Shown piece by piece: positions 4,979-54,971 of a stretch of DNA of 64,000 nucleotides. A model generated the notes under the pieces. That model ran no database searches. It saw nothing but the letters and a program-made list of their open reading frames with translations, and had not been told where the DNA came from. A program made the translations under genes and the position numbers. Origin of the DNA: Squalus acanthias (Eukaryota); the NCBI GenBank assembly GCA_030390025.1, contig CM059432.1, positions 4,960,001 through 5,024,000 on the forward strand. The letters run 5' to 3'. Each line of letters starts with the position of its first letter. Position 1 is the stretch's first letter.

Positions 4979-5215
4979 TGTGGAGATGCCGGCGTTGGAC
5001 TGGGGTGGACAAAAATGAGAAGTCGCACAACACCAGGTTATAGTCCAACAGATTTATTTAATTTTACAAGCTTTCGAAGCAGTTCGCTCCTTCGTCAGGT
5101 AAGTTAGCAATGAGAGAATCTCCCAGAATTCACAATTTAAACCCAGACCAAATCTATTCACATTATTCCCTACAACAAAGAGCACAGCCAAGACAATGAG
5201 ATGTGTCCCAGGGGG
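4979..5215 (-). mobile_element. Penelope-like pLTR fragment with hammerhead motif
   Basis: 12-bp TSD TCTCATCAATAA (4967-4978/5216-5227). Homologous to the 3' ends at ~13100-13399 and ~48830-49067. Confidence 0.85.
5064..5102 (-). ncRNA. Minimal hammerhead motif (family A)
   Basis: Minus strand TTAC-CTGACGA-A-GGAGC gaact GCTTC-GAA-AGCT-T-GTAA. Confidence 0.75.
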
Positions 5216-6938
5216 TCTCATCAATAAAGCACAGTCCCAACCGAAACTGGTGGAAGGCAGGAGATGGCCAGCCCATTGTCTTCCAGGGGATAAGCCAGTT
5301 AAGCAAGTTCGGTTTGAGACTGAAACCTGCTAATGGGGCCATCAACTCAGGAAATGACATACATCCAGTAATCAGCACTCATTGTCTCTCCAGGTGCCAG
5401 GCCTGGGAGCGGGGAAACGGAATATCATTTTTCACAAAGATTTCAAAGGTCATGAGCCACTCCAGGCCACAGGGGGGTCCAGACAGATCACCTGAGTCAA
5501 TACATCGATCAGTATTGGCGGGAGAAAAAGGTGATGGGTTTTGGGTATATAAGGAGCCATTCGGGGGCTGCTCTCTCTCTCTCTCTCTCTCTCTGTTCTC
5601 CTCGGCATCAATCTACAGCGAGTCTCCCAAGTGAGGCTCGGCTCGACGGAACACCGCCAGAAGCTGATCGCTGCTCTTCATCCCTCATCAACGGACCGCG
5701 ACTCAAACTGGAACTTGGATACCGTGTCGGCGGTACGGAACCAGGAGCGAGACGTACAGGAAGAAGCTGCAAGCAAGACAACGGGCAATCGGGGGTGAGC
5801 ATATTGCCTGCGCCTACACATCCACAAGACCACTTAGCTGTATGAGGGGGTGATTGTAAGTCCCAACCAAACCTTAGAGGGGTTTAGTGCTGGGGTCCCG
5901 TGTTAGTTCATTTCACCGTTGGGGGGGGGGGGGGGGGGGGGGGGTTCTTTTATTAGACCGTGGTAATTTAGCACAGTATGGCTTGTTGGACAAGCCAGGG
6001 TTGTATTGCTTTGTACTGTTACGAGTGTTATTGTTAATCCTATTAAACACAATACGGTTGAGCTCAAACGGGTGTCCGAGTCGGATCTGTCCATAGAATC
6101 CCTATCGTCCAGAACTTGTAGTAAGAGGTGTGTTTTCGGCGCGCCTGAGAAAACCACTTACAGGTACCAGTATGTTTAACTCTATATTGTTTAATTAAAA
6201 GTCAGTTTCGCTAGAGTATGTTATCAGTGCCTTTAAAAATTGTCTCACTCTCCTGAGCTACATTAACCATTTCATGTCGTGCTGTTTGTCAAATAACTGA
6301 GCATGTCTGAGGCCCGTTCTTCAGTGCATCTTCACCATGCATTTCCGCATGTAGTTGCCTCATGCGCAATACATCGCATTTTCACACACGGTATCCCAGT
6401 ATCATTCCACACTTGACATCAGTTACAAGCCATTCCTGGGATTTTAAGTTATCTCATCAAAAGATCGGAGGTCTTCTTCTCATCGCTCCCTGCATGGTCC
6501 CAGTGTCTCATGTAGTGGCCAGGCTATCATATACATTTTCCTCATTGTTCAGTATAGGTAAATATACAAACATCTCCAAGAGAAACCTAGAGTCATAACG
6601 GCACAGAAGGAGGCCATTCGGCCCATCGAGTCTGTGCCGGCTCACTGTAGAGCAATCCAGTCAGTCCCATTCCCCCGCTCTATCACCGTAGCCCTGCAAG
6701 TTTATTTCCCTCAAGTGCCTATCCAGTCTCTCCCAAAAACATTGAGTGTCTCCGCTTCCACCACTTCCGTCGGCAGCGAGTTCCAGGTCCTCACCACTCG
6801 CTGCGTAAAAAAGTTTTTCCTCACATCCCCCCTGTACCTCTTGCCCAAAACCTTAAATCTGTGTCCCCTAGTCCTTGTACCATCAACTAGTGGGAACAGC
6901 CTTTCCCCGTCAAGCCTATCCAAACCCATCATAATCTT

Positions 6939-7141
6939 GAGAAGTCGCACAACACCAGGTTATAGTCCAACAGTTTCATTTGAAATCACAAGCTTTCGGA
7001 GCTGCTGCCCCTTCGTCACCTGACGAAGGAGCAGCGCTCCGAAAGCTTGTGATTTCAAATAAAACTGTTGGACTATAACCTGGTGTTGTGCGACTTCGCA
7101 CTTTTGTCCACCCCAGTCCAACACCGGCATCTCCGCATCAT
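6939..7141. mobile_element. Palindromic non-autonomous Penelope-derived mini-element
   Basis: ~80-bp arms are inverted about position 7019. TSD CATCATAATCTT (6927-6938/7142-7153). Confidence 0.88.
7016..7052 (+). ncRNA. Minimal type I hammerhead ribozyme motif (family A)
   Basis: TCAC-CTGACGA-A-GGAGC agc GCTCC-GAA-AGCT-T-GTGA. Confidence 0.8.
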
Positions 7142-8035: not shown

Positions 8036-11000
8036 ATTCTATATCAAAGGGCAGGGAGCAATCTAGAGTAAAAATGTTTAATGGAAGGCCAATTTCAGCG
8101 GGATGAGAACGGATCTGGCCCGGGTAAACTGGAATCAAAGACTGGCAGGCAAAACTGTAATGGAACAGTGGGCTGCCTTTAAAGAGAAAATAGTTCAGGT
8201 ACATTCCCACTAGGGGGAAAAGACAGGTCAACTAAACTCAGGGCTCCCTGGATGACAAAAGAGATAGAGAATATGATGAAGCAGAAAAAGAGCGCGTATG
8301 ACAGATGCCAGGTTGTAAATACATCGGAGAATCATATATATATATAGAAAGGTCAGAGGAGAAGTGAAAAAGAGGGACAAAGAGAGGGTATGAGAATAGA
8401 ATGGCAACCAACATAAAAGGTAATCCAAAAGTCTTCTACAGGCATATAAATAGTAAAAGGCTGGTAAGAGGAGGGGTGGGGCCGATTAGGGACCAAAAAG
8501 GAGACCTATGCATGGAGGCAGAGGGTATGGCTGAGGTACTAAACGATTATTTTGCATCTGTCTTCACCAAGGAAGAAGATGCTGCCATAGACATAGTGAA
8601 GGAGGAGGTAGTGGCGATACTTGATAGGATAAAAATTGATAAAGAGGAGGTATTAGAAAGGATGGCTGTACTTAAAGTAGATAAGTCACCAGGAGCAGGT
8701 GGGATGCATCCTAGGATGCTGAAGGAATTGAGGGAGAAAATCACAGAGGTACTGGCCATAATATTCCAATCCTCCTTAGATACAGGGGTGGTGCCAGGGG
8801 ACTGGAGAATTGCAAATGTTACACCATTGTTCAAAAAAGGGTGTAAAGATAAACCCAGCAACTACAGGCCAGCCAGTTTGACCTCGGTGGTGGGGAAGCT
8901 TTTAGAAACAGTAATCAGGAACAAAATCAACAGTTACTTGGATAGGGGTGGATTAATTAAGGAAAGCCAGCACTGATTTGTTAAAGGCAAATTGTGTTTA
9001 ACTAACTTGAATGCGAGTTCTTTGATGAGGTAACAGAGTGGGTTGATGAGGGTAATGCAGTTGACGTAGTTTACATGGATTTCCAAAAGGCGTTCGACAA
9101 AGTGCCACATAATAAGCTTGCCAGCAAAGTTGAAGCCCATGGAATAAAGGACAGTGGCAGCAAGGATACGGAATTGGCTAAGTGATAGGAAACAGAGAGT
9201 AGTGGTAAACGGTTGATTTTCGGACTGGAGGAACATATACACAGTGGTGTTCCCCATGAGTCGGTTCTAGGACCACTGCTTTTCTTGATATATATTAATG
9301 ACTTGGACGTGGGTGTACAGGGCACTATTTCAAAATTTGCAGATGACACAAAACTTGGAAGATAGTGAACAGTGAGGAGGAGAGTGGTAGACTTCAGGAA
9401 GACAAAGACAGGCTGGTGAAATGGGCGGACACGTGGCAGATGAAATTTAACGCAGAAAAGTGTGAAGTGATACATTTTGGTAGAAATAATGAGGAGAGGA
9501 CATATAAACTAAATAGTACAATCCTGAAGGGGGTGCACGAACAGAGAGACCTGATGTGTGCACAAATCGTTGAAGCTGGCAGGGCAGGTTGAGAAAGCAG
9601 TTAAAAAGGCTTACGGGATCCTGGGCTTCATGAATAGAGGTATAGTGTGGAAATTATGACGAACCTGTATAAAACACTGGTTCGGCCCCAACTCTGTCCA
9701 ATTCTGGGCACCGCTCTTTAGGAAGGATGTGACGGCCTTAGAGAGGGTGCAGAAAAGATTTACGAGAATGATTCCAGGAATGAGGGACTTCAGTTACGTT
9801 GACAGACTGGAGAAGCTGGGGCTGTTCTTCCTTGGAGCAGAGAAGATTGAGAGGAGATCTGATAGAAGTGTTCAAAATCGTGAGGGGTCTGGACAGAGTA
9901 GATAGAGGGAAACTGTTCCCATTGGCAGAAGGGTCGAGAACCAGAGGGGACAGATTTAAGGTGATTGGCAAAAGAACCAAAGGCGACGTAAGAAAACACT
10001 TTTTTACGCAGCGAGTGGTTAGGATCTGGAATGCACTGCCTGAAAGGGTGGTGGAGGCAGATTCTATCACAGCTTTCAAAAGGGAGTTAATCATAGAAAT
10101 TTACAGCACGGAAGGAAGCCATTCGGCCCATCTTGTCTGTGCCGGCCGACAAAGAGCTATCCAGCCTAATCCCACTTCCCAGCTCTTGGTCCATAGCCCT
10201 GTAGGTTACTGCACTTCAAGTGCATATCCAAGTACTTTTTAAATGTGATGAGGGTTTCCGTCTCCCACCCTTTCAGGCAGTGAGTTCCAGACCCCCACAA
10301 CCCTCTGGGTAAAAAAATTTCTCCTCAACTCCCCTCTAATCCTTCTACCAATTACTTTGAATCTGTGCCCCCTGGTTATTGACCTCTCTGCTAAGGGAAA
10401 TAGGTCCTTCCTATCCACTCTATCTAGGCCTCTCATAATTTTATACACCTCAATCAGGTCTCCCCTCAGCCTCCTCTGTTTCAAGGAAAACAACCCCAGC
10501 TTATCCAATCTTTCCTCATAGCTAAAATTCCCCAGCCCAGGCAACATCCTCGTAAATCTCCTCTGCACCCTCTCTAGTGCAATCACATCCTTCCAGTATT
10601 CTAGCTGCGGTCTAACTAGTGTTTTATACAGTTCAAGCATAACCTCCCGGCTCTTATATTCTATGCCTCGGCTAATAAAGGCAAGTATCCCGTATGCCTT
10701 CTTAACCACCTTATCTACCTGTCCTGCTACCTTCCAGGATCTGTGGACATGCACTCCAAGGTCCCTCTGATCCTCTGCACTTCTCGGTATCCTACCATTT
10801 ATTGTGTATTCCCTTGCCTTGTTAGCCCTCCCCAAATGCATTACCTCACACTTCTCCGGATTGAATTCCATTTGCCACGGTTCTGCCCACCTGACCAGTC
10901 CATTGATATCTTCCTGCAGTCTAAAGCTTTCTTCTTCATTATCAACCACACGGCCAATTTTTGTATCATCTGCAAACTTCTTAATCATACTTCCTACATT

Positions 11001-11164
11001 CAAGTCCAAATCAGAGATGGATAAATATATGAAGGAAAGAAATTTGTAGAGCTACGGGGAAAGGGCGGGGGAGTGGGACTAGTTGAAGTGCTCTTGCAGA
11101 GAGCCGGCACGGGCTCGATGGGCTGAATGGCCTCCTTCCGTGCTGTAACCATTCTATGATTCTA
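8036..11164 (+). mobile_element. CR1 LINE (ORF2 pseudogene), interrupted by an antisense CR1
   Basis: [34 protein letters not shown]. 3' tail ATTCTATGATTCTA at ~11151-11164. Confidence 0.9.
10091..11010 (-). mobile_element. CR1 LINE 3' fragment
   Basis: 256-aa ORF with KFADDTKIG, LVRPQLEY and FFTQRVVGVWNSLP. Confidence 0.9.
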
Positions 11165-12209
11165 ACCACTCTTGGTAATCTTGCACCAACTCATCTGGCC
11201 TCCCTGCTTAAAAGAAAAAACAGAAAATCCATTGTGGCTTTCCTGCCAGCCCAATGGGTTAATTTGTCAATTCCTGATTCCCTCCCGTCACTGTGGGGAA
11301 ACATCCACTCAAATTAAAAACTTTAAAATTTAACAATGCCCAAAATGTTTATAAAGCAGCTTGTGGAATTAAAAACAGAGTTCACAGCTGCTTGTGAAAA
11401 GAGTTAACTCCTTTTTTTGCATTTCAAAAGACAAGCACAAACATCATCAATCAATGTCAGCTTGTGTCACACAGCTTCTGGCAGCTTTCAAATTTAAAAA
11501 ACTTTTGCCAAATAAAAAAACCTGTTACTTTTGCAAAGTCTTTGTGCCTTTAAAATTTGCAAAGATCCTGATCAATTCAATTCAGCAGGTAAAAACATCA
11601 GACATCATTAGTAACACTTTGTGAAACAACTCCCCACACAACAATAGCATTTCCCTTCTTTCCCCCTGGTCACACATACTTGAAATTTAATTTTTTTTTT
11701 TTAAAATGCCAATTGTTGATGTGATTGCCTCATGTCCAGAACGAGAGGCTTTCACACAATTTACACCAAGCAGAATTTCACCGTGGTCACAATAAAAGTC
11801 TGGTTTTAATAGGTTAATAGATCAATTTCTGATGTTTGATTGAATTCCATTCTGAACTGATTCAAAATCTTAAACTCACAGTCTGTGTCCTCAATCAAGC
11901 CTGTTACTTCCTACACAGTTCTTATCACTTTCCTCTGGTGTATGGGAGGAGTGTAATGACACAGAGTAAACGGTGACGGGAACGCTGAAGATTCAGTCGA
12001 GAGTCCCAATCCTTTTCTCAGTTCATCCTTCAGAACTGCCTCTCTCAACATTTTCAACATTCTAACTTCCATTCCATATCCCTTTAGATAATGTTTACAA
12101 CTCCCATATTTTAGCTTTTCACTGAACATCTCAATCAGTTCTGAGACAGCCCATTCCTACAGAAACTAAGTGCTTCTGGGCAAGCTTCTCCCACTGCTTT
12201 CATCTCTAA

Positions 12210-13399
12210 AGGAGGAACGCGATGGACACCTACGGACGCTGAAAAACGCCCTCGTAAGAACGGGATATGACGCTCGACTCATCGATCGACAGTTCCGACG
12301 GGCCACAGCGAAAAATCGCATAGACCTCCTCAGAAGGCAAACACGGGACACAACCAACAGGGTACCCTACGTCGTCCAGTACTTCCCCGGAGCGGAGAAA
12401 CTACGCCATGTTCTTCGCAGCCTCCAACATGTCATCGATGACGACGAACACCTCGCTAAGGCCATCCCCACGCCTCCACTACTTGCCTTCAAACAGCCGC
12501 CTAACCTCAGAAGTACCATCGTTCGCAGCAAATTACCCAGCTTTCAGGATAACAGCGACCACGACACCACACAACCCTGCCACGGCAACCTCTGCAAGAC
12601 ATGCCAGATCATCAACACAGATACCATCATCACACGTGAGGACACTACCCACCAGGTACATGGTACATACTCATGTGACTCGGCCAACGTTGTCTACCTC
12701 ATACGTTGCAGGAAAGAATGCACCGCGGCATGGTACATCGGCAAGACCATGCAGACACTGAGACAACGTATGAACGGACACCGCGCAACAATCACCAGGC
12801 AGGAGTGTTCCCTCCCAGTCGGGGAACACTTCAGCAGTCAAGGACATTCAGCCTCGGATCTGCGGGTAAGCGTTCTCCAAGGCGGCCTTAGAAACACAAG
12901 ACAACGCAAAATCATCGAGCAGAAACTGATAGCCAAGTTCCGCACTCATGAGGACGGCCTCAACCGGGACCTTGGGTTTATGTCACGATACATAACGTGA
13001 TCCAGACTCGAGACGTCGTTGGCTTGTTCACAGATGTGATTCCCAGTAAAAAAGTAAAAATTTTAAAGTTTATCGTTTCCCATACCGACTGCGGCTTTTG
13101 ACACATTGGACCCCCTGTGGCTCCACCTCATTGTCTCAGTTGTATCTTGCTATGTCTTTGATGTGGTACCTTCCTGGCTGACCTGATTGCCTTTTGTCAC
13201 ACCTCGGCAGATAAACAGTCAGGATGATTTAAATGTAGTCGTCTGCCATTGTAAGTTACACATGCATTGTTCTCTATCTATATATACTTTGTCGACTCTG
13301 TATTTCTTTACTTCACCTGAGGAAGGGGTGTAAGCTCCGAAAGCTTGTGATTTCAAATAAAACTGTTGGACTATAACCTGGTGTTGTGCGACTTCTCAT
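12210..13399 (+). mobile_element. Penelope-like element, 5'-truncated (linker, Zn-finger-like motif, GIY-YIG endonuclease, pLTR)
   Basis: PCHGNLCKTC, VVYLIRC..WYIGKT..LRQRMNGH and GLNRD. TSD TTTCATCTCTAA (12198-12209/13400-13411). Confidence 0.92.
13313..13350 (+). ncRNA. Minimal hammerhead motif (family A)
   Basis: TCAC-CTGAGGA-A-GGGGT gtaa GCTCC-GAA-AGCT-T-GTGA. Confidence 0.75.
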
Positions 13400-13411
13400 T
13401 TTCATCTCTAA

Positions 13412-15202: not shown

Positions 15203-15258
15203 CAGGAATATTCCCTGATCCTCCCATTGCTAACTGGAGATCCCTTTAAGTTGAAAAT

Positions 15259-15276: not shown

Positions 15277-15279
15277 AGA

Positions 15280-17085: not shown

Positions 17086-17087
17086 TA

Positions 17088-20952: not shown

Positions 20953-23900
20953 AGTCATAACGGCATAGAAGGAGGCCATTCGGCCCATGGAGTCCGTGCC
21001 GGCTCTCTGCAGAGCAATCCAGTCAGTCCCATTCCTCCCCCTGTAGCCCTGCAAGTTTATTTCCCTCAAGTGCCTCTCCAGTCTCCCCTTGAAAACATCG
21101 AGTGTCTCCACTTCCACCACTTCCGTCGGCAGCGAGTTCCAGGTCCTCACCACTCGCTGCGTAAAAAAGTTTTTCCTCACATCCCCCCCCTATCTCTTGC
21201 CCAAAACCTTAAATCTGTGTCCCCTAGTCCTTGTTCCATCGAAACATAGAAGATAGGAGCAGGAGTAGGCCATTCGGCCCCTCGAGCCTGCTCCGCCATT
21301 CGATGAGATCATGGCTGATCATCCACATTCAGTACCCTGTCCCTGCCTTTTCCCCATGTCCCTTGATCCCTTTAGCTTTAAGAAATATATCTAACTCCTT
21401 CTTGAATATATTTAATGACTTGGCCTCAACTGCCTTCTGTGGTAGAGAATTCCACAGGTTCACCACTCTCTGGGTGAAGAAATTCTTCCTCATTTCTGTC
21501 CTAAATGACTTACCCCTTATCCTTAGACTGTGACCCCTGGTTCTGGACTCTCCGACCATCGGGAACATTCTTCCTGCATCTAGTTTGTCCAGACCTGTCA
21601 GAATTTTATATGTTTCGATGAGATCCCCTCTCATTCTTCTATACTCCAGCGAGTATAAGCCCAATCGACCCAATCTTTCCTCATATGTCATTCCTGCCAT
21701 CCCAGGTATCAGCCTTGTGAATCTTCGCTGAACTCCTTCCATGGCAAGAACATCCTTCCTCAGATAAGGCGACCAAAACTGCACACAACTCAAGGTGTGG
21801 TCTCACCAAGGCCCTGTACAACTGCAGCAGGACATCCCTGTTCCTATACTCAAACCCTTTCGCTATGAAGGCCAACATACCATTTGCCTTCTTCACCGCC
21901 TGCTGCACCTGCATGCTTACTTTCAGCGACTGGTGCACAAGGACACCCAGGTCTCGTTGCACTTCCCCTTCTCCCAATCTATTGCCATTCAGATAATAGT
22001 CTGCCTTTCTGTTTTTGACACCAAAGTGGATAACCTCGCATTTATCCACGTTATATTGCATCTGCCACGCTTCTGCCCACTCACCCAACCTGTCCAAATC
22101 ATCCTGGAGTTTCTCGGTATCCTCCTCGCAGCTCACACTCCCACCCAGCTTTGTGTCATCTGCAAGCTTGGAGATATTACATTTAGTTCCCTTATCTAGA
22201 TCATTAATGTATATTGTGAATAGCTGGGGTCCAAGGACCGATCCCTGCGGTACCCCACTAGTCACTGCTTGCCACTCGGAAAAAGACCCATTAATTCCTA
22301 CTCTCTGCTTTCTGTCCGCCAACCTGCCTTCTTAACCGCCTGCTGCACCTGCATGCTTACTTTCAGCGACTGATGCACAAGGACACCCAAGTCTCGTTGC
22401 ACTTCCCCCTTTCCCAATCTATTGCCATCAACTAGTGGGAACAGCCTTTCCCCGTCTAGTCTATCCAAACCCATCATAATCTTGTACACCTCTATCAAAT
22501 CACCCCACAACCTCCTTTGCTCTAATGAAAACAAATCCAGCTTCTCCAATCTGTCCTTGTAGCTAAGATCCCCCATCCCCGGAACCATTCTGGTAAATCT
22601 CCTCTGCACCCTCTCGAGGGCCTTCACATCCTTCCTAAAGTGTGGTGACCAGAACTGGACACAATACTCCAGTTGTGGCCTAACCAGTGCTTTATAAAGG
22701 TTCAGCATAACTTCTCTACTTTTGTACTCAATACCTCTATTTATGAAGCCCAAGATCCCATATGCTTTGCTAATCACTTTCTCAATATGTCCCACCACCT
22801 TCAGGGACCTATGCACATTAACTCCCAGGTCCCTCTGTCCCTGCACACTCTTTAAAACTGTGCCATTAAGTGTATATTGCCTCTCCCTCTTCCTTCTGCC
22901 AAAATGCATCACCTCACACGTCTCTGTATTAAATGCCATCAGCCACTTGTCTGCCCATTCTGCTAGCCTTTCTATGTCCTGTTGCAGTCGATTGGTATCA
23001 TCCTCACTGTTTGCCACACCTCCAAGTTTGGTGTCATCAGCAAATTTAGAAATTCTACACTGTATTCCAATATCCAGGTCATTTATATATATCAAAAAAA
23101 GCAGTGGTCCCAGCACTGACCCTTGGGGAACACCACTGTCTACCATCCTCCGGTCTGAAAAACAGCTATTTACCACAACTCGCTGTTTTCTGTCCTTAAG
23201 CCAATACCTTATCCAAGCTGCCACTGACCCACCTATTCCATGAGCCTCAATTTTGTTAACCAGCCTTCTATGTGGTACTTTGTCAAACACCTTCCTAAAA
23301 TCCATGTAGACAACATCCATTGCCTTCCCTTCATCAATCCTCCCTGTTACTTCATCAAAAAATTCAATTAGATTAGTCAAACACAATCTGCCTTTTACAA
23401 ATCCGTGTTCACTCTCCTTAATTAGCTTAAACCTCTCCAAGTGCCCGTTAATTTTTCCCTTGATTATTGTTTCTAAAACTTTACCCACCACTGATGTTAA
23501 ACTGACCAGCCTGTAGTTACCAGGATTGTCCTTACATGCTTTCTTGAACAATGGTGTCACATTTGCCACTTTCCAATCCTCAGGCACCTCCCCCGCATCT
23601 AGGGAAGATTGGAAAATTATGGCAAGCCCTTCCGCTATCTCCTCCCCCAATTCCCTTAGCAACCTGGGATGCAAGCCATCTGGACCAGGCGACTTATCCA
23701 CTCGAAGCATACCCAGCCTTTCGAGTACATCCTGTCTATCAATTTTCACCCCTTCCATTGCTTTTACCTTTTCCGCTTCTACCGATATTTTGTCAGCATC
23801 CACCTCCTTAGGAAATACCGATACAAAGTACTCATTGAGTATTCTAGCCTTGCCCTGCGCCTCTAAGCATGTATCACCTTCTTTGTCCCTAATAGGCTCC

Positions 23901-24474
23901 ACCCCGCCTCTTACTACCCGCTTACTGTTAACATGCCGGTAGAAGATTTTTGGGTTCCCTTTTATGTTAACCGCCATTCTACTCTCAGATTCTCTCTTTG
24001 CCAATCTTATTTTCATCTTCACTTCCCCTCTCAACTTAGTATTTGGTCTGGTTCTGCCTTAAAGAATTCACCTGACATTCATCATACACCCTCTTTTTTT
24101 GTTTCATCATCTTCTCTATCTTCCTAGTCATCCAAGGAGCCCTTGCTTTGGTTCCCTTACCCTTCCCTCTTGTTGGAATGTATCAAGCCTGTACTTGGAA
24201 CATCTCCTCCTTAAAGATCACCCATTGTTCCGTTACGGTTTTTCCTGTTAGTCTTTGGTTCCATTTTACCCTGGCTAGATCCTTTCGCATCCCATTGAAG
24301 TTAGCCCTATTCCAATTTAGAAGTTCCACTCTAGATTGTTCCTTGCTCCTCTCCATTGCTAATCTAAATCTTATGATACGATGATCACTCGTACTCAAGT
24401 GTTCTCCCATAGACACTTGGTCGACCTGGCCCACCTCATTCCCCAGCACCAGATCCAGCAATGCCTCCTTCCTA
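20953..24474 (-). mobile_element. CR1 LINE (endonuclease end + RT), interrupted by a second CR1 at 21241-22427
   Basis: [46 protein letters not shown]. Confidence 0.92.
21241..22427 (-). mobile_element. Nested CR1 3' fragment of a different subfamily
   Basis: Has its own RT C-terminus and 3' tail. The host CR1 resumes at CCATC|AACTAGTGGG. Confidence 0.85.
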
Positions 24475-25381: not shown

Positions 25382-26574
25382 TGTAGGGGGTGGTTTTGGT
25401 AGGGGTCAGCCTTTCCCCTGACTCAGTGAGCGGTTCGAATCGCTCCCACGCTCCAGGTTCAAAACTTGGACTTATTTAGGGTTGTGAATAAAGATGCAGT
25501 AGACAACAGGTTCCGATGAAAGAACTATAACTTATTAAGAATTAAAAGGTGACAAACTTAAACACACTTCACACTTAAATAGGTTTGGGGAACACACAGT
25601 TACAGGCGAGGCAGAATGACAGTATACAAGACAAAAAAAAACCTTTATCCCTCCCAAAAATCCCACTTTCTAGCTAGGTTTCGGTTTCAGGAGATCAGGG
25701 ATAATGCTCACCAAACAGGGGTATTAACAGTACGAAATCCAGCCAGGTAAGTTGATGGTGATTCTGGTCATCGAATGTCTTCCTTTACCATGTGGCTTCT
25801 GGGCAGAGCTGAGAGGGAGCGTTGTTCCAGCGTGGTCGGCGAGTCAAAAGAGAAAGAAATCTTGGGTCCTGCTGCAGATATAGTCCTTTTTCGCCCCCCC
25901 GCCCCACAAAACTCCTCACGAAAACTGGTTTCGTAATGCAGTGAGTTTTCAGGTGAGGCCTGTTCATTGTCTTGTTAAATTTTGATGGGCCTTCAGCTAT
26001 GCTAAACCAAATCAAATGGCTTACGTCCTGTTGAGCTGTTGTTCCATGGAAGCTTGCATTGTTCTCATGCTTTGGGTTCCTTGCTGGGCCTAGCATTCCT
26101 ATGGGCTCTGTGTTTTGGGTGGGGCGGCCTTCTCCCAGGGCCTATTGTCCAAATGTTAATAACAACAGAAAATGCTGGAAAAACTCAGCAGGCCAGGCAG
26201 CATCCGTGGAGAGAGAAAGAGAGTTAACGTTTCAGGACGATGACGAAAGGTCATCGACCTGAAACGTTAACTCTCTTTCTCTCTCCACGGATGCTGCCTG
26301 GCCTGCTGAGTTTTTCCAGCATTTTCTGTTGTTATTTCAGATTTCCAGCATCCGCAGTATTTTGCTATCGTCCAAATGTTAATGTTTGCTATCGTCCAAA
26401 TGTTAATGTTTGCTGGGCTTTGAATTCCCAGACAATGCAATCTCAAGCCTGCTATTCACAGAGGTAGATCCACGTGCTGTGCATGTCCAGACATGTTCCT
26501 TTAAAGTTCCAAAGTCCTTATTTTTTTCCCTCTAGATATTTTTTGGGGGATCTGCAAATTTTGGAAATTTTACA
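25382..26574. mobile_element. Solo LTR (4-bp TSD)
   Basis: TGTA...TACA ends, TSD GGTG. The uninterrupted site is seen in the sister LINE copy at ~40010-40030. Confidence 0.8.
26161..26369. mobile_element. Palindromic Penelope-derived mini-element (family B)
   Basis: ~75-bp inverted arms around a truncated hammerhead core. TSD GTCCAAATGTTAAT (26147-26160/26370-26383). Confidence 0.85.
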
Positions 26575-38114: not shown

Positions 38115-40890
38115 AAGATTTTTTTTTGGTTTATGGGATGTGGGCGTCGCTGGCAAGGCCAGCATGTATTGCCCATCCCTACTTGCCCTTGAGAAGGTAG
38201 TGGTGAGCCGCCTTCTTGAACCGCTGCAGTCCGTGTGGTGAAGCTACTCCCACAGTGCTGTTAGGTAGGGAGTTCCAGGATTCTGACCCAGCGACGATGA
38301 AGGATCGGCGATATACTTCTAAGTCAGGATGGTGTGCGACTTGGAGGGGAACTTGGAGGTGATCGTGTTCCCATGCGCCTGCTGCCCTTGTCCTTCTAGG
38401 TGGAAGAGGTCGCAGCTTTGGGAGGTGCTGTCGAAGAAGCCTTGGCGAGTTGCTGCAGTGCATCTTGTAGATGGTACACACTGCAGCCACGGTACGCCGG
38501 TGGTGGAGGGAGTGAATGTTTAAGGTGGTGGATGGGTTGCCAATCAAGCGGGCTGCTTTGTCCTGGATGGTGTCGAGCTTTTTGAGTGTTGTTGGAGCTG
38601 CACTCATCTAGGCAAGTGGAGAGTATTCCATCACACTCCTTACTTGTGCCTTGTAGATGGTGGAAAGGTGAAATAACAAGAGAAAATGCTGGAAGCACAC
38701 AGCAGGCCAGGCAGCATCCGTGGAGAGAGAAACAGAGTTAATGTTTCAGGTCTGGGACCTTGTAGATGGTGGCAAGGCCTTGGTGAGTCAGGAGGTGAGA
38801 CACTCACCGCAGAATACCTAGTCCCTGACCTGCTCTTTTTGCCACAGTATTTATGTGGCTGGTCCAGTTAAGTTTCTGGTCAATGGTGATCCCCAGGATG
38901 TTGATGGTGGAGGATTCGGCAATGGTAATGCCGTTGAAAGTCAAGGGGCGGTGGTTAGACTCTCACTTGTTGGAGATAGTCATTGCCTGGCACTTCTTTG
39001 GTGTGAATGTTACCTGCCACTTATCAGCCCAAGCCTGAACGTCATCCAGGTCTTGTTGCATGCGGGCATGGATTGCTTCATTATCTGAGAAGTTGTGAAT
39101 GGCACTGAATACTGTGCAGTCATCAGCGAACATCCCCATTTCTGACCTTATGTTGGAGGGAAGGTCATTGATGAAGCAGCTGAAGATGGTTGGGCCTAGG
39201 ATACTGCCCTGAAGAACTCCTGCAACGATGTCCTGGGGCTGTGATGATTGACCTTCAACCACCACAATCATCTTCCTTTGTGTTAGGTATGACTCCAGCC
39301 AGTGGAGAGTTTTCCCCCCGATTCCCATTGACTTCAGTTTTACTAGGGCTCCTTGATGCCACACTCGGTCAAATGCTGCCTTGATGTCAAGGGCAATCAT
39401 TCTCACCTCACCTCTGGAATTCAGCTCTTTTGTCCATGTTTGGGCCAAGGCTGTAATGAGGTCGGGAGCTGAGTGGTCTTGGCAGAACCGAAACTGGGCA
39501 TCAGTGAGCAGGCTATTGGTGAGTAAGTGCCGCTTGATAGCACTGTTGATAACACCTTCCATCATTTTGCTGATGATTGAGAGTAGACTGATGGGGCGGT
39601 AATTGGCCGGATTTGTCCTGCTTTTTATGGACAGGACATACCTGGGCAATTTTCCACATTGTCGGATAGATGCCAGTGTTGTAGCTGTACTGGAACAGCT
39701 TGGCTAGAGGCACGGCTAGTTCTGGAGCACAAGTCTTCAGCATGATAGCCGGGATGTTGTCGGGGCCTTTGCTGTATCCAGTGCGCTCAGCCGTTTCTTG
39801 ATATCACGTGAAGTGAATTGAATTGGCTGAAGACTAGCTTCTGTGATGGTGGGGACCTCAGGAGTAGGCCGATATGGATCATCCACTCGGCACTTCTGGC
39901 TGAAGATGGTTGCAAACGCTTCAGCCTTGTCTTTTGCACTCACGTGCTAGGCTCCACCATCATTGAGGCTGGGGATATTCATGGAGCCTCCTCCTCCCGT
40001 TAGTTGTTTAATGGTCCACCACCATTCACGACTGGATGTGGCAGGACTGCAGAGCTTTGATCTGATCCCTTGATTGTGGGATCTCTTAGCCCTGTCTATA
40101 GCATGCTGCTTCTGCTTTTTAGCGTGCATGTAGTCCTGTGTTGCAGCTTCTCCAGGTTGGCACCTCATTTTTAGGTACGCCTGGTGCTGCTCCTGGCATC
40201 CTCTTCTACCCTCCTTATTGACCAGGGTTGGTCCCCTGGCTTGGTGGTAATGGTAGAGTGAGGGATATGCCAGGCCATGAGGTTACATATTGTGGTGGAA
40301 TACAATTCTGCTGCTGCTGATGGCCCAGAGCGCCTCATGGATGCCCAGTTTTGGGCTGCTAGATCTGTTCTGAATCTATCCCATTTAGCATGGTGGTCGT
40401 GCCACACAACACAATGGAGGGTGTCCTCAGTGTGAAGACGGGGCTTCGTCTCCACAATGACTGTGCGGTGGTCACTGCTACCAATACTGTCATGGACATA
40501 GGTAGATTGGTGAGGACGAGGTCAAGTAGGCTTTTCCCTCATGTTGGTTCTCTCACCACCTGTCGCAGGCCCAGACTGGCAGCTATGTCCTTCAGGACTC
40601 GGCCAGCTCGGTCAGTAGTGGTGCTACCGAGCCACTTTTGGTGATGGACATTGAAGTCCCCCACCCAGAGTACATTCTGTGCCCTAGCTACCCTCAGTGC
40701 TTCTTCCAAGTGGTGTTCAACATGGATGAGTACGGATTCATCAGCTGAGGGAGGGCGGTAGGTGGTAATCAGCAGGAGGTTTCCTTGCCCATGCTTGACC
40801 TGAAGCCATGAGACTTCATGGGGTCCAGAGTCAATGTTGAGGACTCCCAGGGCCACTTCTTCCCGACTGTATACCACTGTGCCGCCATGC
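38115..40890 (-). mobile_element. CR1/L2-group LINE, same family as 24820-28701
   Basis: LWVGDFNVHH, NYRPISLLS, LDIKAAFDRVWH, MFADD, and the same 3' tail. Confidence 0.9.
38669..38757 (-). mobile_element. Family B pLTR fragment inserted in a LINE
   Basis: Homologous to 26161-26236. Flanking duplication CCTTGTAGATGGTGG. Confidence 0.75.
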
Positions 40891-43088: not shown

Positions 43089-43660
43089 TATATTACTTAA
43101 ACTATGACTTAATTACACAACAGATACATAATTACGATAATTGGGAAAAGAACCAGCGGGGAGATGAGGAGAAATGTTTTCACGCAGCGAGTTGTTGTGA
43201 TCTGGAATGCGCTGCCTAAAAGGGCGGTAGAAGCAGATTCAATAGTAACTTTCAAAAGGGAATTGGATAAACACTTGAAAAGGAAAAATTTGCAGGGCTG
43301 TAGGGAAAGAGTGAGATAAACAACCAGATAATGTGTTTTGGTTTCTGTTGGTTGAGGGGTAAATGGTGGCCAGGATACTTTGAGAACTCAAATGCCCCTC
43401 TTCAAATAATGCCTTAGGATCTTTTACATCCACCTGAGTGAGCTAATAGAGCCTGGGTTTAACGCTGCATCTAAAGACAGTGCCTTAGATTATGTACTCA
43501 AGTCCTGGAGTGGTAAGAGCACTACCACTGAACCAAGGCTAATGTACATGGCAGGGAACTTTATTTAAAGAATGAGAAGGTTTGTACCTGCAGTAAGAAA
43601 TCTACCATTCTCCCTCATTTATTCAACAATAAGGAAATTAATGAAAGTAGCACAAAACAC

Positions 43661-44719
43661 TACTTCCTTTTTCCTCAACCGAGGATTCCCCTCTACTGTG
43701 GTTGGCATGGCCCTCGACCGTGTCCGTTCCATTTCCCGCACTTCTGCTCTCACCCCTTCTCCCTCCCAGAACCACGATAGGGTTCCCCTTGTCCTCACCT
43801 TTCACCCCGCCAGCCTCCACATTCAACGGATCATTCTCCGCCATTTCCGCCACCTCCAGCGTGATCCCACCACCAAACACATCTTCCCCTCCCCTCACCT
43901 TTCAGCATTCCGAAGGGACCGCTCCCTCCGCAACACCTTGGTCCACTCCTCAATCACCCCCAACAGCCCCTCTCCTCCCCACGGCACCTTCCCGTGCAAG
44001 CGCAGAAGATGCAACACCTTCCCTTTTACCTCCTCCCTTCCCACTGTCCAGGGCCCCAAACACCCCTTCCAGGTGAAACAGCGATTTACTTGTACTTCTT
44101 GCAATTTAGTATACTGTGTTCGCTGCTCATGATGCGGTCTCCTCTACATTGGGGAGACCAAACGCAGATTGGGTGACCGCTTCGCGGAACACCTCCGTTC
44201 AGTCCGTAAGGGTGACCCCGAGCTTCCGGTCGCCTGTCACTTTAATTCTCCGCTCCACTCCCACTCTGACCTCTCTGTCCTCGGCCTCTTACACTGTTCC
44301 AATGAAGCTCAACGTAAGCTCGAGGAACAGCACCTCATCTTTCCATTAAGCACTTTACAGCCTTCCGGACTCAACATCGAGTTCAACAATTTCAGACTGT
44401 AACCTCTGCCCCTATTTTTTCACATGGCAGCTGTTGATGATTCTACCATCCCCATTTGCAACATTTAATCTCTCCTGCCTTCCATCCTAGCACAGACCGT
44501 CCCTTTTGTTCTTCCCTCCCCTCCCCCCTTTCCCTGCCCCTACACTTGCTTAAAACCTGTTACATCTCTAAAACTTTTTCCAGTTCTGACGAAGGGTCAT
44601 CGGCCTGAAACGTTAACTCGGTTTCTCTCTCCACAGATGCTGCCTGACCTGCTGAGTGTTTCCAGCATTTTCTGTTGTTATTTCAGATTTCCAGCATCCG
44701 CAGTATTTTGCTTTTGTAT
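43661..44719 (+). mobile_element. Penelope-like element, second family, 5'-truncated
   Basis: RVPLVLTFHP, FPCKRRRCNT, LVYCVRC..LYIGET, GLNIEF. TSD TAGCACAAAACAC (43648-43660/44720-44732). Hammerhead motif in the 3' repeat. Confidence 0.92.
44582..44618 (+). ncRNA. Minimal hammerhead motif (family B)
   Basis: AGTT-CTGACGA-A-GGGTC atc GGCCT-GAA-ACGT-T-AACT. Confidence 0.78.
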
Positions 44720-47700: not shown

Positions 47701-47931
47701 CTAAACTCCAAAGGTATTTAATAGATAAAGTTCAATATTCAAGACTAATATATATATATTTATGTATATTGCATAGTCTACAAAATAAACCTCGCAAGTT
47801 GAGGAAAGACAGCACCAGTACCCGAGTGCTCTGCATAAATCTATGATGCGGAGATGCTGGTGTTGGACTGGGGTGGACAAAAATGAGAAGTCGCACAACA
47901 CCAGGTTATAGTCCAACAGTTTTATTTGAAA

Positions 47932-47968
47932 TTACGAGCTTTCAGAGCGCTGCTCCTTCGTCAGGTAA
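47932..47968 (-). ncRNA. Minimal hammerhead motif (family A; duplicate at 51426-51462)
   Basis: Minus strand TTAC-CTGACGA-A-GGAGC agc GCTCT-GAA-AGCT-C-GTAA. Confidence 0.75.
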
Positions 47969-48978
47969 AGTGAGGGAATACAAATCAGATACAAAGCATA
48001 TATAGACAGAACAATGTGTCTGCAGAGAAACAATCCGTCAGGGAGGCATTACATCAAAGACACAGCAGAATACAGCTAAGACAATGAGGTGGGGTCACAG
48101 GGGGTCCAACGTGTCAAATGCTGCAGTCTGCAGTTAAGCTTTTTACTTTTTTTAAAAACTGGAAATCACACCTGTGAACAAGACAACGACGACTCTAGTC
48201 TGGACTCTAGTCACGTCCTGTAGCGTGACATGAAACCGAGTAAAAAGTACCATCGTTCGCAGCAAATTACCCAGCTGTCAGGAGAACAGCGACCACGACA
48301 CCACACAACCCTGCCACGGCAACCTCTGCAAGACATGCCAGATCATCAACACAGATACCATCATCACACGTGAGGACACTACCCACCAGGTACATGGTAC
48401 ATACTTGTGTGACTCGGCCAACGTTGTCTACCTCATACGTTGTAGGAAAGAATGCACCACAGCATGGTACATCGGCGAGACCATGCAGACACTGAGACAA
48501 CGCATGAACGGACACCGCGCAACAATCGCCAGGCAGGATTGTTACCTCCCAGTCGGGGAACACTTTAGCAGTCAAGGACATTCAGCCTCGGATCTGCGGG
48601 TTAGCGTTCTCCAAGGCGGCCTTCGAGACACACGACAACGCAAAATCATCGAGCAGAAACTGATAGCCAAATTCCGCACCCATGAGGACAGCCTCAACCG
48701 GGATCTCGGTTTCATGTCACGCTACAGGACGTGACTAGAGTCCAGACTAGAGTTGTCGTTGTCTTGTTCACAGATGTGATTTCCAGTTTAAAAAAAAAGT
48801 AAAAAGCTTAACTGCAGACTGCAGCATTTGACACGTTGGACCCCCTGTGACCCCACCTCATTGTTTTAGCTGTACTCTGCTGTGTCTTTGATGTAATGCC
48901 TCCCTGACGGATTGTATCTCTGCAGACACATTGTTCTCTGTCTATATATGCTTTGTATCTGATTTGTATTCCCTCACT

Positions 48979-49015
48979 TTACCTGACGAAGGAGCAGCGC
49001 TCCGAAAGCTCGTAA
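48979..49015 (+). ncRNA. Minimal hammerhead motif (family A; duplicate at 52473-52509)
   Basis: TTAC-CTGACGA-A-GGAGC agc GCTCC-GAA-AGCT-C-GTAA. Confidence 0.8.
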
Positions 49016-49974
49016 TTTCAAATAAAACTGTTGGACTATAACCTGGTGTTGTGCGACTTCTCATTTTTGCATAAATCTAGACTGCACCACTACACCACCA
49101 CCTGGTGGAATAGAATGGTAACTGTAATTGAACTTGCCACTTCATCTGTAATTGTCACCAATTTACTAGTTGATTTCCTATGCAGTCAAGTCCAAGTGTG
49201 GTATTTAGGTCAAGCATGAGAGACTGCCCTTGACATCAAAGCAGCATAGCAACCTAGGAACCGGAATAGGTCATTCAGCCCCTCGAGCCTATTCAGTGAG
49301 ATCGTGACCGAACTCCATATACCTGCCTATGTCCCATAATTGACTGGCGCTTGACCGAGTTTGGCACCAAGGAGCCCCAGTAAAACTGAACTCAGGCGGA
49401 AAACGCTCCAGTGGCTGGAGTCATACCTGGGACAAAGGAAAGGTGGTTGTTGGAAACCAATCATCTCAAACCCAGGACATCGCTGTAGGAGTTCCTCAGG
49501 GCAGCGTCCTAGGCCCAACTCTCTTCAGCCGCTTCATCAATGACCTTCCCTCCATCAGAAATAGGGATGTTCGTTGATGAGTCCACGGCGTTCAGCTCCA
49601 TTCGCAATTCCTCAGATGATGAAGCAGTCCGTGCCCGTGTGCAACAAGAATTGGACAACATCCAGGCTTGGGCTGATAAGTGGCAAGTAACATTCGTGCC
49701 AGGCAATGACTCCAATAGAGAGAGCATTCCTCCCCTTGACATTGAATGGCATTACCATCGCCGAGTCCCCCACCATCAACATCCTGGGGGTCATGACTGA
49801 CCAGAAAATCAACTGGACCAGCTTCAGAGCAGGGCTGAGTATTCTGTGGCGAGTTGCCCACCTCATTTCTTCACCAGCTAGAAGGCACACTTCTCTCACC
49901 CCCAAAAGGCTGTGGATGTTGGGTTAATTGAAATTTTCAAGACTGAGAGCAATAGATTTTTTGTTAGGCTTGGT

Positions 49975-51295
49975 TAGGCCCTCCAATCAGGTTTCCGCCC
50001 CTGCCACAGTACCGAAACAGCTCGAATCAAAGTCACAAATAACATCCTATGTGACTGTGACCGTGGAAAACTATCCCTCCTCGTCCTTCTCAACCTGTTT
50101 GCAGCCTTTGACGTGGTTGACCACACCATCCTCCTCCAAATCCTCTGTCGTCCAGTTGTCTGAGACTCCACTCTGCTGGTTCCATTCTTAACTATGGTGT
50201 CGTTGCCAGAGAATCACCTGCAACGGCTTCTCTTCCTGCTCTTGCATCGTTACCTCTGGTGTCCCCCAAGGATCTATCCTTGGCCCCCTCCGATTTCTCA
50301 GCTACATGCTGCCCCTTGGCAACATCATCCGAAAACACAATGTCAGGTTCCACATGTACACTGACGACACCCAGCTCTACCTCACTACCACCTCTCTCAA
50401 GCCCTCCATTGACTCTAAATTGTCAGACAACTTGTCCGACATCCAGTACTGGATGAGCAGAAATTTCCTCCAACTAAATATTGGGAAGACCGAAGCCATT
50501 GTCTTTGGTCCCTGCCACAAACTCTGTACCCTAACCAGATTCCATCCCTCTCCTATCTGAGGCTGAACCAGACTGTTTGCAATTTTGGTGCTGTGCTGTA
50601 TTTGACCTCGAGATGAGCTTCCGACCACATATCCGCGCCATCACTAAGACTGCCTATTTCCATCTCCGTAACATCGCCCAGCTCCGCCCCTGCCTCAGCT
50701 CATCTGCTGCTGAAACCCTCATCCATGCCTTTGTTATCTCTAGCCTTGACTATTCCAACTCACTCCTGGCCGGCCTCCCATCTTCCACCCTCCATAAACT
50801 TAAAGCTCATGTAAAACTCGGCTGCCCGTATTCTAACTCGCACCAAGTCCCCTTCTCCCATCACGCCTGTGCTTGCTGACCTACATTGGCCGGTTAAGCA
50901 ATGCCTCGATATTAAAATTCTCATCCTTGTTTTCAAATCCCTCCATGGCCTCGCCCCTCCCTATCTCTGTAACCTCCTCCAGCCCTACGACCTTCCGAGA
51001 TCTCTGCGCTCCTCGAATTCTGGCCTCTTGAGCATCCCTGATTTTAATCGCCCCACCATTGGCGGCCGTGCCTTCAGCTGCTGAGACCCTAAGCTCTGGA
51101 ATTCCCTCCCTAAAACTCTCTTTCCTCCTTTAAGATGCTCCTTAAAATCTTCCTCTTTGACCAAGCTTTAGGTCTCCTGTCCTAATATCGCCTTACGTGG
51201 CTCAGTGTCAAATTTTGTTTGATAATCACTCCTGTGAAGCGCCTTGGGACGTTTTATTACATTAAAAGAGCTACATAAATGCAAGTTGTTGTTGT
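49975..51295 (+). mobile_element. L2 LINE 3' fragment (duplicate at ~53469-54788)
   Basis: [47 protein letters not shown]. Confidence 0.9.
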
Positions 51296-51371
51296 AAGGG
51301 TATTAATGAATATGGAGCAAAGGCAGGTAAATGGAGTTGAGGTACAGATCAGCCACAATCTAATTGAATGG

Positions 51372-52561
51372 CAAAAATGAGAAGTCGCACAACACCAGGT
51401 TATAGTCCAACAGTTTTATTTGAAATTACGAGCTTTCAGAGCGCTGCTCCTTCGTCAGGTAAAGTGAGGGAATACAAATCAGATACAAAGCATATATAGA
51501 CAGAACAATGTGTCTGCAGAGAAACAATCCGTCAGGGAGGCATTACATCAAAGACACAGCAGAATACAGCTAAGACAATGAGGTGGGGTCACAGGGGGTC
51601 CAACGTGTCAAATGCTGCAGTCTGCAGTTAAGCTTTTTACTTTTTTTAAAAACTGGAAATCACACCTGTGAACAAGACAACGACGACTCTAGTCTGGACT
51701 CTAGTCACGTCCTGTAGCGTGACATGAAACCGAGTAAAAAGTACCATCGTTCGCAGCAAATTACCCAGCTGTCAGGAGAACAGCGACCACGACACCACAC
51801 AACCCTGCCACGGCAACCTCTGCAAGACATGCCAGATCATCAACACAGATACCATCATCACACGTGAGGACACTACCCACCAGGTACATGGTACATACTT
51901 GTGTGACTCGGCCAACGTTGTCTACCTCATACGTTGTAGGAAAGAATGCACCACAGCATGGTACATCGGCGAGACCATGCAGACACTGAGACAACGCATG
52001 AACGGACACCGCGCAACAATCGCCAGGCAGGATTGTTACCTCCCAGTCGGGGAACACTTTAGCAGTCAAGGACATTCAGCCTCGGATCTGCGGGTTAGCG
52101 TTCTCCAAGGCGGCCTTCGAGACACACGACAACGCAAAATCATCGAGCAGAAACTGATAGCCAAATTCCGCACCCATGAGGACAGCCTCAACCGGGATCT
52201 CGGTTTCATGTCACGCTACAGGACGTGACTAGAGTCCAGACTAGAGTTGTCGTTGTCTTGTTCACAGATGTGATTTCCAGTTTAAAAAAAAAGTAAAAAG
52301 CTTAACTGCAGACTGCAGCATTTGACACGTTGGACCCCCTGTGACCCCACCTCATTGTTTTAGCTGTACTCTGCTGTGTCTTTGATGTAATGCCTCCCTG
52401 ACGGATTGTATCTCTGCAGACACATTGTTCTCTGTCTATATATGCTTTGTATCTGATTTGTATTCCCTCACTTTACCTGACGAAGGAGCAGCGCTCCGAA
52501 AGCTCGTAATTTCAAATAAAACTGTTGGACTATAACCTGGTGTTGTGCGACTTCTCATTTT
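51372..52561 (+). mobile_element. Duplicated copy of the Penelope-like element at 47844-49067
   Basis: Identical ORF translation at offset +3494. Confidence 0.9.
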
Positions 52562-54866
52562 TGCATAAATCTAGACTGCACCACTACACCACCACCTGGT
52601 GGAATAGAATGGTAACTGTAATTGAACTTGCCACTTCATCTGTAATTGTCACCAATTTACTAGTTGATTTCCTATGCAGTCAAGTCCAAGTGTGGTATTT
52701 AGGTCAAGCATGAGAGACTGCCCTTGACATCAAAGCAGCATAGCAACCTAGGAACCGGAATAGGTCATTCAGCCCCTCGAGCCTATTCAGTGAGATCGTG
52801 ACCGAACTCCATATACCTGCCTATGTCCCATAATTGACTGGCGCTTGACCGAGTTTGGCACCAAGGAGCCCCAGTAAAACTGAATTCAGGCGGAAAACGC
52901 TCCAGTGGCTGGAGTCATACCTGGGATAAAGGAAAGGTGGTTGTTGGAAACCAATCATCTCAAACCCAGGACATCGCTGCAGGAGTTCCTCAGGGCAGCG
53001 TCCTAGGCCCAACTCTCTTCAGCCGCTTCATCAATGACCTTCCCTCCATCAGAAATAGGGATGTTCGTTGATGAGTCCACAGCATTCAGCTCCATTCGCA
53101 ATTCCTCAGATGATGAAGCAGTCCGTGCCCGTGTGCAACAAGAATTGGACAACATCCAGGCTTGGGCTGATAAGTGGCAAGTAACATTCGTGCCAGGCAA
53201 TGACTCCAATAGAGAGAGCATTCCTCCCCTTGACATTGAATGGCATTACCATCGCCGAGTCCCCCACCATCAACATCCTGGGGGTCATGACTGACCAGAA
53301 AATCAACTGGACCAGCTTCAGAGCAGGGCTGAGTATTCTGTGGCGAGTTGCCCACCTCATTTCTTCACCAGCTAGAAGGCACACTTCTCTCACCCCCAAA
53401 AGGCTGTGGATGTTGGGTTAATTGAAATTTTCAAGACTGAGAGCAATAGATTTTTTGTTAGGCTTGGTTAGGCCCTCCAATCAGGTTTCCGCCCCTGCCA
53501 CAGTACCGAAACAGCTCGAATCAAAGTCACAAATAACATCCTATGTGACTGTGACCGTGGAAAACTATCCCTCCTCGTCCTTCTCAACCTGTTTGCAGCC
53601 TTTGACGTGGTTGACCACACCATCCTCCTCCAAATCCTCTCCTCTGTCGTCCAGTTGTCTGAGACTCCACTCTGCTGGTTCCATTCTTATCTATGGTGTC
53701 GTTGCCAGAGAAGCAACGGCTTCTCTTCCTGCTCTTGCATCGTTACCTCTGGTGTCCCCCAAGGATCTATCCTTGGCCCCCTCCGATTTCTCAGCTACAT
53801 GCTCCCCCTTGGCAACATCATCCGAAAACACAATGTCAGGTTCCACATGTACACTGACGACACCCAGCTCTACCTCACTACCACCTCTCTCAAGCCCTCC
53901 ATTGACTCTAAATTGTCAGACAACTTGTCCGACATCCAGTACTGGATGAGCAGAAATTTCCTCCAACTAAATATTGGGAAGACCGAAGCCATTGTCTTTG
54001 GTCCCTGCCACAAACTCTGTACCCTAACCAGATTCCATCCCTCTCCTATCTGAGGCTGAACCAGACTGTTTGCAACTTTGGTGCTGTGCTGTATTTGACC
54101 TCGAGATGAGCTTCCGACCACATATCCGCGCCATCACTAAGACTGCCTATTTCCATCTCCGTAACATCGCCCAGCTCCGCCCCTGCCTCAGCTCATCTGC
54201 TGCTGAAACCCTCATCCATGCCTTTGTTATCTCTAGCCTTGACTATTCCAACTCACTCCTGGCCGGCCTCCCATCTTCCACCCTCCATAAACTTAAAGCT
54301 CATGTAAAACTCGGCTGCCCGTATTCTAACTCGCACCAAGTCCCCTTCTCCCATCACGCCTGTGCTTGCTGACCTACATTGGCCGGTTAAGCAATGCCTC
54401 GATATTAAAATTCTCATCCTTGTTTTCAAATCCCTCCATGGCCTCGCCCCTCCCTATCTCTGTAACCTCCTCCAGCCCTACGACCTTCCGAGATCTCTGC
54501 GCTCCTCGAATTCTGGCCTCTTGAGCATCCCTGATTTTAATCGCCCCACCATTGGCGGCCGTGCCTTCAGCTGCTGAGACCCTAAGCTCTGGAATTCCCT
54601 CCCTAAAACTCTCTTTCCTCCTTTAAGATGCTCCTTAAAATCTTCCTCTTTGACCAAGCTTTAGGTCTCCTGTCCTAATATCGCCTTACGTGGCTCAGTG
54701 TCAAATTTTGTTTGATAATCACTCCTGTGAAGCGCCTTGGGACGTTTTATTACATTAAAAGAGCTACATAAATGCAAGTTGTTGTTGTAAGGGTATTAAT
54801 GAATATGGAGCAAAGGCAGGTAAATGGAGTTGAGGTACAGATCAGCCACAATCTAATTGAATGGCA

Positions 54867-54971
54867 AAAATGAGAAGTCGCACAACACCAGGTTATAGTC
54901 CAACAGTTTTATTTAAAATTACGAGCTTTCGGAACTCCGCTCCTTCTTCAGGTACAGGCATCTCCGCATCA
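54867..54971 (-). mobile_element. Penelope-derived mini-insert
   Basis: TSD TAATTGAATGGCA (54854-54866/54972-54984). pLTR sequence with a hammerhead motif. Confidence 0.85.

Follow-up and report, generated by a model that had tools for sequence, protein, structure and literature searches.

The 64,000-nt window of the Squalus acanthias genome analyzed here (assembly GCA_030390025.1, contig CM059432.1, positions 4,960,001 to 5,024,000; all coordinates below count from the first letter of this window) carries hammerhead motifs that sit in the pseudo-long terminal repeat (pseudo-LTR) of a shark Penelope-like element encoding a GIY-YIG endonuclease. We interpret them with good confidence as minimal type I hammerheads left by five 5'-truncated insertions; the motif likely cuts the RNA of intact source elements weakly, as a dimer, and probably with the help of a protein. 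The window copies themselves are carried by shortened insertions that are likely dead. An initial annotation made from the sequence had identified the motifs as Penelope-type minimal type I hammerheads, and this was correct: the type I arrangement without helix III, the extra A between positions 9 and 10.1, the G10.1-C11.1 pair, the 4-bp stem I and the palindromic 15.2/16.2 positions all match the description of the minimal hammerheads of metazoan Penelope-like elements by Cervera and De la Pena 2014 (PMC4209133).

A pattern scan found all eight previously annotated motifs at their assigned positions, each with the arrangement CUGANGA-A-stem II-GAA-AGCU-H. On the plus strand lie 7016-7052 (core from 7020; stem I UCAC/GUGA, stem II GGAGC/GCUCC, loop II AGC), 13313-13350 (core from 13317; UCAC/GUGA, GGGGU/GCUCC, loop GUAA), 48979-49015 (core from 48983; UUAC/GUAA, GGAGC/GCUCC, AGCU-C) and its duplicate in a second tandem unit, 52473-52509 (core from 52477). 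The minus strand carries 5064-5102 (core 5068-5098; UUAC/GUAA, GGAGC/GCUUC, loop GAACU, AGCU-U), 47932-47968 (core 47936-47964; GGAGC/GCUCU with G10.1-U11.1), its duplicate in the second unit, 51426-51462 (core 51430-51458), and 54919-54954 (core 54923-54951; GGAGC/GUUCC, loop GGA). In standard hammerhead numbering, an extra A follows A9 in 8/8 copies, G10.1-C11.1 is present in six of the eight (with G-U in 47932- and its duplicate), helix III is absent with AGCU as the palindrome throughout, and helix I has 4 bp in all but 54919-. All previously listed variants of stem II (four) and of loop II (four) were found, but the list had omitted GGAGC/GCUCU of 47932- and 51426-, and the proposed alternation of UCAC/GUGA and UUAC/GUAA in stem I does not extend to 54919-, which has GUAC/GUAA with only 3 bp because the 5' junction of the insertion cuts the arm. 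In the contig-depth data, which cover 4 of the 20 listed runs (all of them contigs), position 11.1 is C in 91-99% of depth in every run, and the C11.1U change of 47932- and 51426- is likely private CpG decay.

The inventory had also missed a ninth, partial copy of this family 1 (6939-7018-) and a second family with an ACGU palindrome in place of AGCU, of which 16812+ and 44586+ are intact and 26241 and 38750 broken. A structural descriptor that required, besides the core and a minimal helix III, at least 4 bp in stem II and at least 3 bp in stem I returned 10 intact motifs, eight from family 1 and these two from family 2, vs none in each of 40 dinucleotide shuffles. Family 2 shares the extra A after A9. 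A covariance model built from seven window copies plus the metagenome locus L001 (see below) additionally recovered the partial family 1 copy (6984-7025-), the broken family 2 copy at 26238-26274+ and, weakly, a decayed motif at 493-530+ (E = 0.008, a rough value). The latter belongs to a decayed head-to-head pair of hammerhead-like motifs at 459-530 (E = 0.008 and 2.4) that meets 1-2 nt before both cores, adjoined by a family 2 remnant at 235-447. An Rfam search of the window found no hammerhead, its six matches at E up to 1 all being sub-threshold hits to microRNA families. The name "Family A" given to the motifs initially was not found in the passages of the reviews searched and is treated as that annotation's own label.

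The nature of the carrier element is evident from open reading frame (ORF) remnants at 12212-13000 and 48240-48734, which lie upstream of 13313+ and 48979+, respectively, and both encode a C-X4-C-X2-C linker and a GIY-YIG endonuclease with the C-terminal CCHH signature VVYLIRC..C...WYIG...H...EH (residues assigned by reading the translations). These endonuclease remnants were not recognised in a Pfam search. A protein with a reverse transcriptase (RT) domain from the shark Heptranchias perlo shares 89% identity with the longer remnant, an 881-aa full-length relative shares 61%, and sharks contribute most of the 17 protein matches. While the RT core has been lost to truncation in the window, the close relatives P0002 and P0005 carry RVT_1. 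Family 2 has a GIY-YIG remnant of its own (43632-44375). The hammerhead is located 250-320 nt past the GIY-YIG stop codon and is followed by two alternative 3' ends about 40 nt apart, seen both among the window copies and in run contigs, where loose ends occur at 47843 and at 47874-47884, one for each position; the approximately 40 nt between them are the Penelope tail. A CX2-5CxxC linker marks Neptune or Nematis elements rather than Penelope/Poseidon (PMC8557442), and the element would, judging by its linker, be of Neptune/Nematis type.

Target-site duplications bound five family 1 insertions (12-13 bp) and four family 2 insertions (10-15 bp), so that the eight copies of family 1, though all present, amount to five independent insertions and not to six or eight. 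Insertion a (4979-5215, minus strand) is a 237-bp 5'-truncated copy with the long 3' end and a 12-bp target-site duplication, its 5' junction lying 117 nt upstream of C3. Insertion b (6939-7141, 12-bp duplication) is a head-to-head inverted pair: a minus arm of 80 nt, with the short end and without C3, and a plus arm of 126 nt with the long end are joined at the hammerhead's 5' edge by a palindrome. Insertion c (12210-13399, plus strand, 12-bp duplication) is a 5'-truncated copy of 1190 bp comprising the end of the RT region, the CX4CxxC linker, the GIY-YIG endonuclease, the 3' untranslated region and the pseudo-LTR with the short end. Insertion d (47844-49067, 12-bp duplication) is another inverted pair, with 47932- and 48979+ as its two arms; its minus arm has the long end, its plus arm the GIY-YIG remnant and the short end. 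Insertion e (54867-54971, 13-bp duplication) is a short-end copy that starts 3 nt before C3 and is preceded by an inverted stub of the tail. Family 2 comprises a 101-bp plus-strand insertion with an intact ACGU hammerhead and a 5' junction 5-7 nt before C3 (16805-16905), a plus-strand insertion with a broken RT-end/GIY-YIG remnant and the intact hammerhead at 44586 (43661-44719), an inverted pair with its junction within the 5' half of the hammerhead (26161-26369) and a 94-bp minus-strand insertion that starts inside stem II (38664-38757). Since the window copies are truncated, any selection on the fold acted on source elements.

Evidence for such selection comes from the comparison of lineages. 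A protein profile search of metagenome, genome and viral contigs yielded one metagenome locus (L001), one genome locus (L002) and no viral locus, and L001 encodes a relative 56% identical to P0005 with the identical motif type after its ORF, including the extra A after A9, but with different stems I and II. Across five family 1 copies, two family 2 copies and L001, two-sided changes occur in six of the nine pairs, with 70 of 71 cells paired, and none of 500 shuffles reached this. Between A15.1 and U16.1, family 1 and L001 have GC and family 2 has CG, so that the tetramer stays self-complementary. Within the limits of three lineages only, this two-sided switch is the best sequence evidence that we have for a putative intermolecular helix III, and the cross-lineage covariation as a whole supports selection on ancestral master elements as well as the dimer model.

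This model would work as follows: in the source element, two direct pseudo-LTRs would place two hammerheads on one RNA, the AGCU of one would pair with the AGCU of the other to form helix III, stem I would form across the two copies, and cleavage would occur after AGCU-H. Selection on the fold would have acted on source elements during their spread, with the window copies as passengers that would now be drifting. The inserted copies were probably made from uncut RNA, because none starts at the cut site. Dimer cleavage has reportedly been described by Lunse et al. 2017 too, as cited in reviews. The helix III between AGCU palindromes that the initial annotation had proposed corresponds to a published model in which two hammerheads on a tandem transcript pair via the palindrome and cut after H17, and Penelope minimal hammerheads were indeed found uncut as monomers and weakly cut as dimers (PMC4209133). 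For the window, the proposal gains support from the GC-to-CG switch between the two families and is disfavoured by folding prediction (see below).

Several results weigh against this interpretation. In nearest-neighbour folding of all eight copies, the double hammerhead is predicted to be less stable than two monomers, and another dimer fold is preferred over it, though core tertiary contacts lie outside the folding model; the outcome would agree with weak activity. The hammerhead of an Anolis element was cut only in presence of the element's protein and was dispensable for insertion, and no Anolis RNA reads ended at the cut site (PMC11167929). The cross-lineage count rests on three lineages and on a structure taken from the same sequences. 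Within family 1, tested on seven rows (six non-duplicate copies and the partial copy, with the two duplicates left out), only one of the nine pairs changes on both sides, which 441 of 500 shuffles matched or exceeded. The covariation claimed to be visible inside the window was therefore overstated and is too thin to show selection, and the claim that these RNAs were selected is supported across lineages but not by the covariation within the family. The stem I change between UCAC/GUGA and UUAC/GUAA is not cleanly observed in 7016+, whose UCAC arm lies inside the fold-back palindrome at the inversion junction. In the run contigs, position 1.3 of stem I is G in 72-92% of depth while its partner 2.3 has no listed variant, which suggests a common U-G wobble; the longer-loop II subfamilies are clipped there, leaving the two-sided change neither confirmed nor refuted. 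Speaking for selection, none of 11 core positions varies in family 1 vs 12 of the 23 remaining positions of the hammerhead (p = 0.003 in a post hoc Fisher test, with loop II counted as 3 positions), and no core position differs in at least 3% of contig depth in any of the four runs, where H17 and stem I 1.3 vary. However, the core is not more constant than the 50 nt downstream (0/11 vs 6/50 variable positions, p = 0.58), where a 33-nt block is invariant in 7/7 copies, so that the constancy of the core is not special.

The distribution of 5' junctions raises the tentative alternative that the fold is preserved chiefly because it serves as a structural landmark where the copied RNA begins, be it the RNA 5' end, a stop of reverse transcriptase or a template-switch site, with cleavage being minor or dispensable. 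Among the nine insertions with target-site duplications, five have their 5' junction between -7 and +11 nt of C3, the other four lying at -117, -276/-738, -925 and -1107, and none is found at the cut site (+28/+29). Given an assumed per-insertion chance of 0.03-0.1, the probability of at least five of nine junctions at the landmark is 3e-6 to 9e-4. Arms of 80 to 126 nt stop at one position, which argues that position and not length decides. Two of the junctions are palindromes fitting fold-back priming as proposed for rotifer elements (PMC3846280), and in sequencing run X1 all four strand-switch joints have one side at -7 to +16, with the reservation that joints need about 35 letters per side to be visible and are biased accordingly. 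The finding that cleavage is dispensable for insertion of the Anolis element in vitro (PMC11167929) points in the same direction. On the other side, a plain hairpin would need neither all the catalytic bases nor the self-complementary 15.1-16.1 tetramer, which are kept in three lineages, and the junction count comes from only nine insertions. The landmark and cleavage readings can both hold. The pile-up of 5' junctions is not stated in the passages of the literature searched for it.

With similarly low confidence, the pseudo-LTR may be an RNA cassette of two parts that define both ends of the most common insertion product: downstream of the hammerhead, a conserved hairpin with the optional tail as its 3' arm would set the start of copying, and the 5' edge of the uncut hammerhead would set the point at which copying stops, folds back or changes template. 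If true, the hammerhead would shape the architecture of Penelope insertions apart from any RNA cutting. The hairpin is predicted at 7066-7123 (+), downstream of the hammerhead, with the 3' arm of its 9-bp outer stem falling within the optional tail; this stem is predicted in both 7016+ and L001, with seven pairs invariant and two changed on one side. Folding z-scores of whole pseudo-LTRs are unremarkable in 4/5 copies.

Returning to cleavage in the source elements as the preferred explanation, a less favoured rival attributes the variation within family 1 to neutral decay, in which G-C and A-U pairs of the eight copies would often turn into wobbles by chance through transitions and CpG loss. 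Stem II pairing is kept as annotated, but two-sided change is seen in none of its five pairs, each change being a single transition to G-U, just as decay would have it; C11.1U indeed lies in a CpG and is rare in 4/4 runs, and every copy is truncated. Conversely, all five changing stem II positions stay paired (about 0.03 if half of transitions do so, post hoc), and the non-core positions vary more than the core. Paired cells reach 96.8% in family 1, a share attained by 6 of 500 shuffles, although a high share can arise among related sequences without structure. As the two-sided changes between lineages are left unexplained, neutral decay is improbable as a full account and likely explains some private changes only.

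It is highly unlikely that adoption by the host has turned one or more copies into cis-acting ribozymes or a non-LTR retrozyme array. The idea draws on same-strand copies lying 3494 bp apart, an intact element-like spacing, in a tandem duplication at 47878-54864, the source, as previously annotated, of two copies (51426- and 52473+). Its units, 3494 and 3493 bp long, differ by 8 mismatches and 2 small indels. Both of its breakpoints fall in minus-strand pseudo-LTR copies, and the duplication likely arose by unequal crossing-over between two Penelope insertions or is a misassembly. Against the idea, every copy belongs to an ordinary insertion flanked by a target-site duplication, each tandem unit is mostly unrelated LINE sequence and also contains an antisense copy, with which the sense copy would pair, and the 13 tandem-repeat rows in the window include no short hammerhead array. 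No copy in the window is in the direct pseudo-LTR/ORF/pseudo-LTR arrangement or in an intact tandem element; the nearest neighbouring copies form head-to-head pairs, and their transcripts would pair with each other as sense and antisense.

The window copies are an ordinary example of a described kind, with minimal hammerheads and the dimer model in print since 2014. Minimal hammerheads have been reported from fish Xena, Poseidon and Neptune elements, and the location in pseudo-LTRs, the many solo copies and the opposite-strand pairs are shared with the present case (PMC4209133). Differences are the shark host, as a word search of the main text of that paper finds no mention of sharks, and a helix II of 5 bp vs 7-8 bp in its Schistosoma example. 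Like the Neptune/Nematis-type elements of Craig et al. 2021 (PMC8557442), the element has a C-terminal GIY-YIG domain, a CX2-5CxxC linker, 5'-truncated and inverted copies and an optional 30-40 bp tail, but it has no full-length copy in the window. It further resembles Poseidon of Anolis carolinensis (PAc; Frangieh et al. 2024, PMC11167929) in that the hammerhead is followed by a tail that sits in a predicted stem-loop and is delimited by two alternative 3' ends, and probably in copies made from uncut RNA, whereas PAc belongs to the Penelope/Poseidon clade, which lacks the linker zinc finger. The PAc ORF starts inside stem II; the start codon of the element studied here may instead lie at the long end of the tail, a weak hint given by the loose-end consensus at 47843 (long 3' end, minus strand), which continues ATG-A/G-C in 4/4 runs (agreement 0.39-0.43). 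Non-LTR retrozymes likewise have a type I hammerhead related to Penelope pseudo-LTRs, and hammerhead retrozymes were reported from one chondrichthyan, but these are short non-coding tandem arrays with a hammerhead per unit and not dispersed truncated insertions, some with coding remnants, as found here (bioRxiv 10.64898/2026.07.22.740005).

The two families side by side form a natural test pair, as AGCU and ACGU hammerheads should cleave as homodimers and not as heterodimers, and the clustering of 5' junctions where the hammerhead begins is relevant to the question whether cut RNA ever serves as a template.

The L002 locus stops at the ORF; this Penelope-like ORF (15-1271, 60% identity to P0005) is found on a contig filed as a bivalve gill symbiont and is likely host contamination. 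Four pattern matches in the genome behind it were rejected as being without pseudo-LTR context. An exact 24-nt pseudo-LTR anchor had no match in metagenome, viral or genome contigs, and a looser pattern none in genome contigs; its 22 matches in viral contigs were discarded, with a hammerhead core upstream in none of them. As subfamilies diverge upstream of the hammerhead, the drop in contig depth in that region was not taken to indicate truncation.

Some further observations concern the element and its surroundings. About 20 nt downstream of the hammerhead are near-identical between L001 (1036-1063) and the window (7066-7093) despite the 56% protein identity of this relative to P0005, making the block a candidate binding site for the element's protein. 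Another conserved block about 110-140 nt upstream of the hammerhead (48072-48106 and 5184-5217), separated from it by a variable spacer, is a promoter candidate. Just before stem I of family 2, a pyrimidine run ending in CAG (44560-44586, plus strand) resembles a 3' splice site, with no AG at the matching place in family 1; an intron ending at helix I is described for Drosophila Penelope (PMC4209133). Annotated shark isoforms of septin 5a, XRCC5, USP8 and others (P0007, P0010-P0012, P0014-P0018) contain pieces of the element ORF, either exonised or mis-annotated. A CAT followed by an A/T-rich run occurs in four of five family 1 target-site duplications (4967-4978, 6927-6938, 12198-12209 and 47832-47843), a possible target preference. 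Penelope-derived sequence adds up to about 5.6 kb or 9% of the window, and broken LINE-type retroelements fill much of it (2102-4300, 8051-9921 and 22298-24346).

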